From Oscillospiraceae bacterium (GTDB lineage: Bacteria > Bacillota > Clostridia > Oscillospirales > CAG-272): a stretch of DNA of 64,000 bases. The notes below the pieces were generated by a model. That model was not told where the DNA came from. It did not search any database and saw nothing but the letters and a program-made list of their open reading frames with translations. Shown here in pieces: positions 709 through 28,851 of this stretch. Made by a program: the position numbers and the translations under genes. The DNA lies in the NCBI GenBank assembly GCA_015064965.1, contig SVRG01000001.1:24448-88447 (forward strand), read 5' to 3'. Position 1 is the first letter of the stretch. Every line of letters starts with the position of its first letter.

Positions 709-816
709 TTTTTTGGGCGGGTTTCCCGACCAAAAAACTCCTTAAAGGCTCGGCGGCGGTGAGCCGCACGCGAGTAATCGAGCCTCCCCACTTGAAAATG
801 TTTACATTTTCAAGTG
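709..816. repeat. Unclassified multi-hairpin intergenic element, copy A (argS-yebC spacer)
   Basis: Shares an ~83-nt core plus a positionally conserved flanking hairpin with 28192-28303. Three helices differ by paired (compensatory) substitutions. It starts 4 nt after the argS stop codon on the minus strand. Confidence 0.6.
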
Positions 817-11486: not shown

Positions 11487-11530
11487 TTTTTTGAAGTCTC
11501 CTATTAAAAAATAGAGCCTTCCCGTTATTT

Positions 11531-11627
11531 CAGCGGGATGCGACATATGCACCGCGGCAAAATGCCTTCGTCCGCCTTGCAACTCCCCGTCAAGACGACA
11601 CTTCACGCGCATATGTCTACTCTGTGT
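11531..11627 (-). promoter_or_regulatory. THF (tetrahydrofolate) riboswitch, class I
   Basis: Minus strand AGAGUAGACAUAUGCGCGUGAAGUGUCGUCUUGACGGGGAGUUGCAAGGCGGACGAAGGCAUUUUGCCGCGGUGCAUAUGUCGCAUCCCGCUG. It follows block by block the E. siraeum THF aptamer as I remember it (AGAGUAG...CGCGU.AAGUGU...ACGAAG...GCGCGGUG...GCAUCCGCUC). Confidence 0.85.
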
Positions 11628-11661: not shown

Positions 11662-12603
11662 TCACTTCTCAAATCTTACGTCATTGCCGCAGAAAATGAG
11701 TGGCTTATATACTCCGAGCAAGCGGCTGAAAATTCTCTCGCCGTAGCGCTCGGAAAGTGCGCGCGCATCAAGATTTGTGCTGACTACAGTTGGATAGCCC
11801 TTGCAGATGCGCGTATCAATGACATTGTAAATAAACGACTCGGTGAAAGCACCCACGCCCTCTGTGCCAAGGTCGTCAATGATGAGCAGTTCTGCAGAAA
11901 AATATCTGTCAGTATCGCCCTCTCCCTTGAACTTGGCTCTCTCAAAATCGGAAACGAGATTGAGCGCCGAGGTGTAAAGCACATCGTAGCCGCGGTCAAT
12001 AACCGTTTTTGCGATCGCGCTTGAAAGGTGGGTTTTGCCAAGTCCTGTGCCGCCCATAAACAAAAGCGAGCCGCTCTTTGCATCAAAGTTTTGCGCATAA
12101 TTGCGGATGATATCAAAATTCTGCTCCATACGCGCACGGTCCTCGCCCTTGAAGTAGTCGAGCGAATAATTGTCAAAGCTCTGCTTGAAAATAAGCGCGC
12201 CAAGGCCGCTTGTTTCATAGCCTTTGAGCACAAGTGCGCGCTTGAAGCACTCGCACATTCTGCTCTCTACAAAACCGAGGTCCTTGCACTTTTCGCAATC
12301 GTATTTTACATCGCTGTAGTCCGCAGGATAACCTGCCGCACAAAGCAGTCTTGCCCTTGCCTCGCGCAAATATGCAGTATCACGCTTGATGCTCTCCATA
12401 CGTTTTGCAAGTTCTTCTTTGCCGCCAAGCGCCGCACCGAAAATGCGCGACGCGGTGGTAGCAAGCGCCGCGTCTATCTCGCCGACGCCTTCAACACGTG
12501 CCGCAAGCGCCGCCGCACGTGCCTCTGCCTCGGCGATTTTATCGAGATGCTTTTTTTCAAAAGCCTCGCGAAGTTCGTAGTAGTTTTTTGTGTTAAAACT
12601 CAT
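11662..12603 (-). CDS. dnaI: Helicase loader DnaI (DnaC/IstB-type AAA+ ATPase)
   Basis: 313 aa, N-terminal Cys cluster (CEKCKDLGFVESRMCEC), Walker A GGTGLGKTHL, Walker B LLIIDDLG. Paired with a DnaD-domain gene as in the B. subtilis dnaB-dnaI operon. Confidence 0.8.
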   Translation of the reverse strand: MSFNTKNYYELREAFEKKHLDKIAEAEARAAALAARVEGVGEIDAALATTASRIFGAALGGKEELAKRMESIKRDTAYLREARARLLCAAGYPADYSDVKYDCEKCKDLGFVESRMCECFKRALVLKGYETSGLGALIFKQSFDNYSLDYFKGEDRARMEQNFDIIRNYAQNFDAKSGSLLFMGGTGLGKTHLSSAIAKTVIDRGYDVLYTSALNLVSDFERAKFKGEGDTDRYFSAELLIIDDLGTEGVGAFTESFIYNVIDTRICKGYPTVVSTNLDARALSERYGERIFSRLLGVYKPLIFCGNDVRFEK

Positions 12604-20668: not shown

Positions 20669-20697
20669 TTGACAAAGCATTACGATACTGCTATAAT
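20669..20697 (+). promoter_or_regulatory. Consensus sigma-A promoter of rplJ-rplL
   Basis: TTGACA-17 nt-TATAAT. Confidence 0.8.
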
Positions 20698-20862
20698 GCT
20701 TGTGTTACCGAAGACAGCAGGTTACGGTAAAAGCATGTTTTGATGCTTTCCTGCCGAGGAATGTTTTATAAATATGACTATTTATGATCTTTCTCGGAAT
20801 CTTTCTGTCTTTCCGTAGAAAGATTTATTTTTTTGCAAAAGTTTAACGGAGGTGAAATTACT
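20698..20862 (+). promoter_or_regulatory. Ribosomal protein L10 leader (autoregulatory) with attenuator hairpin
   Basis: About 165-nt structured leader between a consensus promoter and rplJ. Terminator-like AATCTTTCT/AGAAAGATT + T9 at 20798-20834 lies just before the SD. Class assigned from position and architecture, not motif-matched. Confidence 0.6.
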
Positions 20863-26245: not shown

Positions 26246-26268
26246 CTGAGCCGCGAAATGCGGCTCAG
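26246..26268 (-). terminator. Hairpin between dnaK and dnaJ (possible partial terminator/processing site)
   Basis: ctgagccgc-gaaat-gcggctcag, followed on the minus strand by ATTTTCGACTTT. Confidence 0.4.
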
Positions 26269-28142: not shown

Positions 28143-28191
28143 TTATTTATAGATAAATTTTTAATAAACAAACAATATATAATAAAATCTT

Positions 28192-28303
28192 GTTTGAAAG
28201 ACGGACATGCGCCGGCTTTCAAACTCCTTGAAGGCTCGGTCGCGGTCGGGCGACACGCGAGTGAACGAGCCACACCACTTTAAAATATTTGCATTTTAAA
28301 GTG
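28192..28303. repeat. Unclassified multi-hairpin intergenic element, copy B (grpE-dnaK spacer)
   Basis: Homologous to 709-816. It starts 2 nt after the grpE stop on the minus strand and shows compensatory differences in three helices. Confidence 0.6.
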
Positions 28304-28305
28304 AT

Positions 28306-28851
28306 TTAATTTGCGGTTTTGACCATCGCATAACGGATGACTCTTTCGCCGCGCTTGTATCCCTTTTGGAATACTTCTACAATTTCGCCCTCGCCGTATG
28401 CATCATCGTCCACGTGCATTACCGCGTTGTGAACATTTGGGTCAAATGTTTTGCACTCGATTTCTTCAACGCCGAGTTTTGCAAGGCTTTCGCTGAACGC
28501 TTTTGCCATCATGGCAATGCCCTCTGCCACCTTTTCATCACTTGCAAATGCTGCCGCGCGCTCTATATTGTCAAGCACGGGGAGAAATTCGTTTACGATA
28601 TCTGTGCAGGCATCGGAATAAACGCCCTCGCGCTCTGCCTTTGAGCGGCGGCGGAAATTTTCATACTCTGCCGCAACGCGGAGATACTGCTCCTTCTGCT
28701 CTGCAAGTGCCTTTTCGCTGTCTTCAAGCTGTTTTTTGAGCGCTTCTATCTCTTTTTCGTGTTTCTTGTCGCTCTTTGATTTTTTCGCCGCCTTTTCCTC
28801 TGCTGCGGTTTCGGCGGTTTCTTCTACCGGTTCCTTCTTTTCTTCTGCCAT
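28306..28851 (-). CDS. grpE: Nucleotide exchange factor GrpE
   Basis: 181 aa, Lys/Glu-rich coiled N-terminus, GrpE core (RVAAEYENFRRR...). Confidence 0.95.
   Translation of the reverse strand: MAEEKKEPVEETAETAAEEKAAKKSKSDKKHEKEIEALKKQLEDSEKALAEQKEQYLRVAAEYENFRRRSKAEREGVYSDACTDIVNEFLPVLDNIERAAAFASDEKVAEGIAMMAKAFSESLAKLGVEEIECKTFDPNVHNAVMHVDDDAYGEGEIVEVFQKGYKRGERVIRYAMVKTAN

Follow-up and report, generated by a model that had tools for sequence, protein, structure and literature searches.

Operon expression is shaped by small structured repeats such as REP, BOX, ERIC, Correia and bcr1, which also break assemblies and mark hot spots of recombination. The pneumococcal BOX and SPRITE repeats and bcr1 of the Bacillus cereus group are modular intergenic repeats of about 100-150 nt with predicted stable RNA folds and compensatory changes; their orientation is biased with respect to transcription, and no transposase is known for the element. 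REP elements have effects on the stability of mRNA 3' ends and on termination (PMC3333891, PMC3479197), and the defining features of the IS200/IS605 kind of mobile element, and of the PATEs, have been described as well (PMC5027513, PMC10055086). Here we describe an element of three hairpins (H1, H2 and H3) that is present in two copies, A in the argS|yebC spacer and B in the grpE|dnaK spacer, in a stretch of 64,000 nt from an Oscillospiraceae bacterium (contig SVRG01000001.1, positions 24,448 to 88,447), hereafter called the window. The two copies are members of a family of small structured repeats, not catalogued before, in uncultured gut and rumen Clostridia (metagenome-assembled genomes, MAGs, of Eubacteriales). 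Its multiple copies are dispersed, orthologous sites may have the element or lack it, and the three hairpins are kept by Watson-Crick changes. It is best classified as a new family of a known kind, the small structured non-autonomous bacterial mobile repeats, and is closest to the PATE/REP type. With moderate confidence we read the element as a non-autonomous mobile repeat of the REP or IS200-IS605 (PATE) kind, which is likely to have been moved in trans by an enzyme of the HUH/Y1 type.

The likeness to PATEs lies in the small size, the absence of coding capacity and of terminal inverted repeats, and the hairpins at both ends (PMC5027513, PMC10055086), as well as in a short conserved motif directly 5' of the left end, the lack of a consistent target duplication, the scarless-looking empty joints in two filled/empty pairs, and the position of the folded strand of the window copies on the presumed lagging-strand template. 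Unlike them, the family has H2, a third hairpin in the centre, which carries conserved unpaired bases and a motif of Shine-Dalgarno type. With REP elements and BIMEs the family shares intergenic palindromes often located just past stop codons, a conserved tetranucleotide at the hairpin foot and complementary stem changes (PMC3333891). However, a REP is a single G+C-rich hairpin of 20-40 nt, usually in inverted pairs, whereas the family has three hairpins in fixed order over about 115 nt, two of them A/T-rich; moreover, only one inverted pair of copies was found (dnaK|dnaJ in L063/L073; L numbers denote the related loci and contigs compared), and a RAYT gene was not encountered across about 450 kb of related loci. 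The ERIC/IRU repeats of enterobacteria and the Correia repeats of Neisseria are likewise small and transcribed with their neighbours, their orientation altering mRNA stability, processing and termination (PMC3184786), but they have long terminal inverted repeats and TA duplications, neither of which occurs in the family. The resemblance to the BOX, SPRITE and bcr1 repeats, as they are commonly described, is one of modularity, since L073 carries the H3 and tail of the family on a different 5' half; there is no sequence similarity and the host clade is another one, and neither the terminal complementarity of the BOX A and C boxes nor the TTTAT duplication of bcr1 is found in the family.

Family census and covariation of the hairpins

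A strict pattern scan of species-representative genomes gave 17 matches, 14 of which were chance matches in high-G+C genomes. The other three are real copies, all in Eubacteriales MAGs, and one of them is the argS|yebC orthologue. A looser pattern scan of metagenomes yielded 11 real copies, mostly from human gut, and covariance-model searches of relatives recovered further divergent copies that are beyond the reach of either pattern. Altogether, 19 distinct full copies and several cut ones were found in related Eubacteriales MAGs and gut metagenomes. The conserved core measures about 115 nt, or about 135-140 nt together with the long tail.

Over the 19 full copies 95.7% of the stem cells are paired, and 28 of the 39 pairs have undergone changes on both sides. 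H1 is paired in 100% of its cells, with both-sided changes in 9 of 12 pairs, and the outer stem of H2, GGCTCG/CGAGCC in the window, is fully replaced in other copies (AAAACCG/CGGTTTT, ATGTCG/CGACAT, GGGGCG/CGCCCC, AAGTCG/CGACTT). In four of the five covariation measures none of 500 shuffles reached the observed value; the fifth, a count of further pair types, was matched by 5 of 500. Shifted-register controls gave only 38-50% pairing, and a MAFFT alignment that was not fitted to the model also recovered H1 and H3 with covariation. The initial annotation of this locus, made from the two window copies, had proposed that their helices co-vary, and with 19 full copies and strong covariation the proposal holds well beyond the original pair. 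H3 had been described there as unrelated in sequence between A and B; this is incorrect, as the two share a G.CGG...CCG.C core and a conserved pyrimidine-pyrimidine mismatch.

The unpaired ACTCGCGT of H2 and the AAGGAGT downstream of it, which had been termed invariant, are indeed common to A and B but vary in the wider family. In unbiased copies the position of ACTCGCGT is taken by GTCTCGCGA, GGCTCGCGC or ATTCGCAT, and the copies found without forcing the motif have AAGGAGT (five), AAGGTGT (two) or AAAGAGT (one); the apparent invariance is partly due to search patterns that forced both motifs. The unpaired core that survives family-wide consists of CTCGCG, ACC at the 3' end of the H2 hairpin loop, and AARGWGT.

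Additional structures were considered and rejected. Both sides of a putative pseudoknot, ACUC:GAGU, between the internal loop of H2 and AAGGAGU were forced by the patterns, and the pairing is broken in L063b (TCTC/GTGT) and never compensated. An alternative H2 pairing of UCGCG with CGCGA works in copy B only and elsewhere competes with the outer stem. A small open reading frame translated from AAGGAG can be dismissed, since L003 and other copies lack a start codon within usable distance; in copy A, too, no usable start codon lies downstream of the motif.

Orthologous sites and insertion junctions

Between grpE and dnaK, ten contigs of the window's species and L063 have the element and L073 has a variant of it; L061, L062 and L064, whose GrpE proteins are 90% (the closest), 82% and 70% identical to that of the window, respectively, have an empty spacer of 43-44 nt there. 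The window and L063 copies at this site belong to different subfamilies and each resembles other copies within its own genome, a pattern in favour of separate insertions or of replacement. At argS|yebC the element is present in the window, L001 and L067, and the spacer is empty in L068 and L071 (18 nt or 42 nt). The dnaK|dnaJ spacer holds two further copies, one of them inverted, in L063 and L073 only, and L062 has one copy immediately past dnaJ. The density of copies is as high as 4 per 20 kb in L063, and none occurs in the 15-22 kb of L061, L064, L065, L068, L069, L071 and L072. At least two contigs end inside the element, L022 (4627-4747) and L042 (1-86), and one ispF flank is joined to differing downstream DNA among contigs (L030, L043, L024), which is what a repeat would be expected to cause. 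The shared upstream gene of the gut copies was considered as a possible transposase and rejected, as it is ispF itself.

Twelve of the 15 copies with known context are in sense with the upstream gene and three (L029, L063c, L067b) are antisense to both neighbouring genes. The neighbours are functionally unrelated: argS, grpE, dnaK, dnaJ, ispF and the genes of a GGGtGRT protein and of a solute-binding protein. Some copies stand at gene ends with a convergent neighbour or a terminator behind them (L003, L017a, L063d), and seven independent sites lie 0-11 nt past a TAA stop.

The argS|yebC spacer also holds an unrelated insert of about 184 nt in L065 (11696-11879), L066 (11696-11878) and L072 (9859-10040), bounded by terminal inverted repeats AAGTAATAGTGAAGAGTGAA ... 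TTCACTTTTCACTATTACTT, so that this spacer is a hot spot for small insertions. At grpE|dnaK, L073 (4666-4787) has the AAGGAGT, H3 and tail of the family without H1, on an unrelated 5' half. The element is complete at this place in L063, a close relative whose dnaK|dnaJ spacer is identical to that of L073. From this variant the modules of the element seem to be exchangeable.

The tetranucleotide ATCA precedes 14 of the 19 copies and TCA precedes 18, and the CA of ATCA pairs with the TG that closes H1. Two filled/empty pairs define the junction: TGAATCA|GTTTATT in L061 corresponds to TTAAATCA-insert-GTTTATT in the window, and CCAATCA|GTAA in L061 corresponds to TTAATCA-insert-GTAACG in L063. These two independent empty sites of L061 carry AATCAG exactly at the insertion point, against a background of 25 occurrences in 128 kb (the window with both strands counted). 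The 5' end, ATCACTT..., and the 3' end, ...GATTTTATT or ...ACRRGATTTTATT, have no terminal inverted repeat in common, and alignment of the flanks of sense copies revealed no significant direct repeats. Judged from these junction sequences, insertion looks seamless, 3' of ATCA and without duplication. A target TAA-(A)TCA contains a stop codon, which explains the seven independent sites close behind TAA. Two target duplications were rejected, one of 4 nt (GTTT) at copy B, which L063b contradicts, and one of 5 bp (AATCA), which occurs only at L030.

A consequence for a host protein may be seen in the DnaK of L063, which ends in DKT, its TAA stop lying inside TTAATCAC at the 5' edge of the element (12550-12560; also 6612-6622 in L073). 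The proteins of relatives end in DKTNQ, DKTGDNK, DKTDENK or DKTGDGNN, so that the L063 DnaK is 2-5 residues shorter. The insertion appears to have shortened this protein and to have given it its stop codon.

The two copies of the window and searches against known families

The coordinates of both copies and of other features are collected in the table. The layout given in the initial annotation was recovered throughout, namely the order of parts, their positions, the minus strand, the start 2-4 nt past the stop codon, the G:C to T:A swap of H1 and both paired changes of the H2 inner stem (GCGGC/GCCGC versus GTCGC/GCGAC), and its view of A and B as diverged relatives rather than a recent duplication is supported. 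Its extent of about 110 nt fits the hairpin core, which is real, but the A/T-rich tail (ACRRGATTTTATT...) continues beyond H3. The inserted DNA of copy B ends in the tail, ahead of GTTTATTAAAAA, when compared with the empty site of L061, and a long tail of the same type occurs in L063 copies at other loci. As with yebC and copy A, the genuine ribosome-binding site of dnaK is further downstream of copy B.

Table. Features of the two window copies and other sites mentioned in the text (window positions unless a locus is named).
Feature	Position	Strand	Sequence or remark
Copy A	708-818	minus	argS|yebC spacer; order H1, H2, AAGGAGT, H3
argS stop	821-823	minus	TAA; H1 of copy A begins 4 nt past it
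Copy A, ATCA	815-818	minus	directly 5' of H1; insertion target or 5' edge of element
Copy A, H1	789-816	minus	CACTTGAAAAT(G)-loop-(C)ATTTTCAAGTG
Copy A, H2	747-784	minus	outer stem GGCTCG/CGAGCC, inner stem GCGGC/GCCGC, loop TCACC
Copy A, H2 internal loop	core CTCGCG 769-774; unpaired ACTCGCGT 768-775	minus	ATTACTCGCGT
Copy A, AAGGAGT	737-743	minus	Shine-Dalgarno-like, between H2 and H3; final GT is the base of H3
Copy A, H3	708-738	minus	GTTTTTTGGTCGGG-aaa-CCCGCCCAAAAAAC, with T.C mismatch
Copy A, short A/T-rich tail	697-707	minus	ACAAAATAACA...; exact 3' edge uncertain; compared with L001, L067 and the empty spacers of L068 and L071
yebC ribosome-binding site	GGAG 690-693; ATG 680-682	minus	downstream of copy A tail
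Copy B	about 28170-28305	minus	grpE|dnaK spacer; order of parts as in copy A
grpE stop	28306-28308	minus	TAA; H1 of copy B begins 2 nt past it
Copy B, ATCA	28302-28305	minus	
Copy B, H1	28276-28303	minus	CACTTTAAAAT-gcaaat-ATTTTAAAGTG
Copy B, H2	28233-28271	minus	GGCTCG-TTCACTCGCGT-GTCGC-ccgacc-GCGAC-CGAGCC
Copy B, AAGGAGT	28223-28229	minus	
Copy B, H3	28192-28224	minus	GTTTGAAAGCCGG-cgcatgt-CCGTCTTTCAAAC
Copy B, long A/T-rich tail	28170-28191	minus	about 22 nt, AAGATTTTATTATATATTGTTT; dnaK leader beyond
Flanking repeats, antisense copy	L029 6468-6669		21 nt
Flanking repeats, antisense copy	L063 12684-12900		13 nt
Flanking repeats, antisense copy	L067 3850-4115		31 nt
THF riboswitch	11529-11626	minus	Rfam match above gathering threshold, 85 bits
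Ribosomal protein L10 leader	20690-20839	plus	Rfam match above gathering threshold, 62 bits
Hairpin in dnaK|dnaJ spacer	26246-26268		perfect hairpin CTGAGCCGC-loop-GCGGCTCAG, then ATTTTCG

Both copies fold into the three hairpins, copy A with -54.9 kcal/mol (z = -8.3) and copy B with -47.2 kcal/mol (z = -5.5), and in neither case was a shuffled sequence as stable. With the covariance model run over the 64-kb window with filters off, copies A and B scored 150 and 126 bits, respectively, and the third-ranked match, at 28 bits, is an ordinary terminator. As the weaker matches are ordinary terminators and were rejected as further copies, the window contains exactly two. The flanking repeats of the antisense copies include part of a terminator or, in L029, a second 5' arm of H1. 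The perfect hairpin in the dnaK|dnaJ spacer of the window is a separate feature; its stem sequence is kept in all relatives examined (L061, L062, L063, L064, L073) while the remaining spacer is variable, and it is probably an intra-operon attenuator, terminator or processing site.

The initial annotation could place the element in no named RNA family, and the Rfam scans bear this out. At the gathering thresholds of Rfam 15 the whole window gave no family at copies A or B, the only matches being the THF riboswitch and the L10 leader elsewhere, and permissive scans of both copies gave only chance hairpin matches far below threshold. There was no blastn match of copy A to plasmid and phage records, and two scans of viral contigs gave no real copy and one chance match; the family was thus not met in plasmid or phage collections, nor in a limited literature search. 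The CIRCE operator was considered because copy B sits in the hrcA-grpE-dnaK operon, but the sequence is unlike TTAGCACTC-N9-GAGTGCTAA. Integron attC sites have arms in the order R''-L''...L'-R' with RYYYAAC ... GTTRRRY cores, and lie behind cassette genes in the vicinity of an integron integrase. This candidate was rejected as well, since the neighbours here are core housekeeping genes, the GTTT...AAAC of H3 reverses the order of the attC core, and no integrase lies nearby.

Mobility, host function and the folded strand

How would a mobile repeat of this kind behave? The hairpins would be preserved because the folded single strand is the substrate of mobilisation, and the likely agent would be a trans-acting HUH/Y1-type enzyme, as for the IS200/IS605-derived PATEs or the REP/RAYT system. 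The element would insert 3' of ATCA into single-stranded DNA and be excised without a scar. A copy inserted in sense would be transcribed in the host mRNA (argS-yebC, grpE-dnaK), where it may form a passive hairpin block in the 3' untranslated region (3'-UTR) or between cistrons, and in subfamilies with an A6/U6-framed H3 it may act as a terminator. The window copies lie on the G-rich, presumably leading, strand, so that the fold described here would be on the presumed lagging-strand template, the strand which IS200/IS605 elements use (PMC5027513).

Several observations weigh against this reading. Pfam annotation of the genes called over about 450 kb of related loci revealed no Y1 TnpA, RAYT or other transposase; a TnpA partner like that of PATEs was not identified. 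H1 and H3 are unlike each other and have no more in common than a loose A/T-rich arm of the TTTTNAAG kind, in contrast to the left and right end hairpins of IS608, which resemble each other. In contrast to PATEs, the conserved motif stands at the hairpin foot, ATCA abutting H1 with no room for a separate guide sequence as in IS608. The three antisense copies have imperfect flanking direct repeats of 13-31 nt, which an IS200/IS605-type mechanism does not predict and which are a further difference from PATEs. In L073, the empty site that corresponds to L063d is without the 6 nt in front of H1 and retains a TTGTTTT which resembles the 3' end of the element. Lastly, identity among the argS|yebC copies of the window, L001 and L067 is 91-93%, and a purely selfish resident copy should have decayed. 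Four-fold degenerate sites of argS are saturated (0.41 identity, with 84% protein identity for ArgS of the window and of L067) and the 3' tails beyond the copy cores have become unalignable, yet the roughly ten differences among the copies are in loops and linkers or form a compensatory pair, with one that disrupts a pair. Either purifying selection has acted on these copies or the site was re-colonised by near-identical circulating variants, and the latter would fit a site-specific element with scarless excision.

The composition of the stems bears on the question whether the folded strand is DNA or RNA. The core helices contain about 644 Watson-Crick cells as opposed to about 2 internal G-U and 3 A-C, and stem changes go from Watson-Crick to Watson-Crick essentially without wobble intermediates. 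In selected RNA helices several percent of the pairs are normally G-U. This near-absence of G-U is no less compatible with a mobile element's palindromic DNA than with a functional RNA. The sole recurrent non-pairs are conserved pyrimidine-pyrimidine mismatches, tandem in the H2 inner stem of two subfamilies and single in H3, and they imply that the two strands are not equal. The covariation reflects the need for a folded single strand. The initial annotation took it as the signature of a selected RNA or single-stranded DNA fold; for a dispersed, present/absent repeat with antisense copies and almost no G-U the RNA half is not supported as stated, and the DNA half is the better supported one. 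The need may be that of the element (mobilisation), of the host (an mRNA punctuation signal) or of both.

A host-selected, cis-acting RNA module, which may have spread by mobility but is kept for its useful transcribed fold, is a possible explanation of which we are doubtful. Such a module might protect the 3' end of the upstream cistron, or its 5' stem and ribosome-binding AAGGAG might stabilise the downstream cistron in the manner of STAB-SD, and in either role it would uncouple the expression of operon neighbours. The orientation in sense with upstream genes and the seven independent sites just past stop codons speak for it, as do the conservation at argS|yebC described above and the fact that the single-stranded CTCGCG, ACC and AAGGAG are the most conserved parts. 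Neither a promoter nor a terminator was predicted on the sense strand of copy A or B, which are therefore probably transcribed through within their operons, in keeping with read-through. But close relatives do without the element at orthologous sites, three copies are antisense to the genes beside them, the neighbouring genes are functionally unrelated, G-U pairs are nearly absent where a selected RNA helix would usually have them, AAGGAGT is degraded in some copies, and a replication-strand bias would produce the same 12 of 15 sense pattern. If the transcript were instead a trans-acting small RNA of a multi-copy family, with its own promoter, H3 as terminator and AAGGAG (or ACUCCUU of the other strand) as seed, most copies, lying 1-5 nt past a coding region, would have no room for a promoter. 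One locus (L019) does have a TATAAT-like sequence just upstream, the opposite strand offers the anti-Shine-Dalgarno-like ACUCCUU, and H3 of the gut subfamily is a good bidirectional terminator (A6-stem-U6), its A and T runs being flipped to terminator shape in the gut group, L003 and L062. In copy A, however, H3 has its T run 5' and its A run 3' and is therefore not an intrinsic terminator on either strand, nor is that of copy B, and given also the missing sense-strand promoter in both and the patchy presence in close relatives we find a small RNA very improbable.

The 115-140 nt of the element are within the range of a classical MITE (miniature inverted-repeat transposable element), derived from an insertion sequence with a DDE transposase and moved by cut-and-paste with terminal inverted repeats and a short duplication such as TA or TAA. 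The copies are intergenic, have A/T-rich flanks and often show TAA beside both ends. Nevertheless, no inverted repeat is common to both ends and neither the filled/empty comparisons nor the flank alignment test revealed a consistent duplication, so the MITE reading is largely refuted here and we give it little chance. Upstream of both yebC and dnaK there is a fold of several helices, in which unpaired nucleotides are conserved and a motif resembles a Shine-Dalgarno sequence, and this could also suggest a riboswitch or protein-binding leader of the downstream gene. The range of contexts, patchy, dispersed and partly antisense, including gene ends backed by a convergent neighbour or a terminator, excludes a dedicated leader or riboswitch of either gene, and the genuine ribosome-binding sites further downstream, the empty orthologous spacers of close relatives, the lack of functional coherence among neighbouring genes and the absence of an Rfam match leave such an explanation almost no likelihood.

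Mobility and host function could also be combined. We speculate, and regard it as rather unlikely, that a site-specific mobile element, one that employs no terminal repeats and no target duplication, homes to (T)AATCA at TAA stops and that the copies in residence have become domesticated, serving as a structured RNA module in 3'-UTRs or between cistrons. If true, this would explain a conservation in situ well above the neutral rate, the unpaired CTCGCG, ACC and AAGGAG and the tandem pyrimidine mismatches, and the element would be a portable operon punctuation mark, possibly moved by an enzyme not yet linked to such elements.

The host clade, Clostridia of gut and rumen, is uncultured and known from MAGs alone, and the family explains contig breaks and chimeric joins in those assemblies. 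The element should not be annotated as a riboswitch or leader of dnaK or yebC. As a clean test case, the family allows covariation that comes from the mobility of a DNA hairpin to be distinguished from covariation that comes from RNA function. Should its resident copies prove to be selected by the host, the family would exemplify the domestication of a mobile element into an intercistronic RNA signal.

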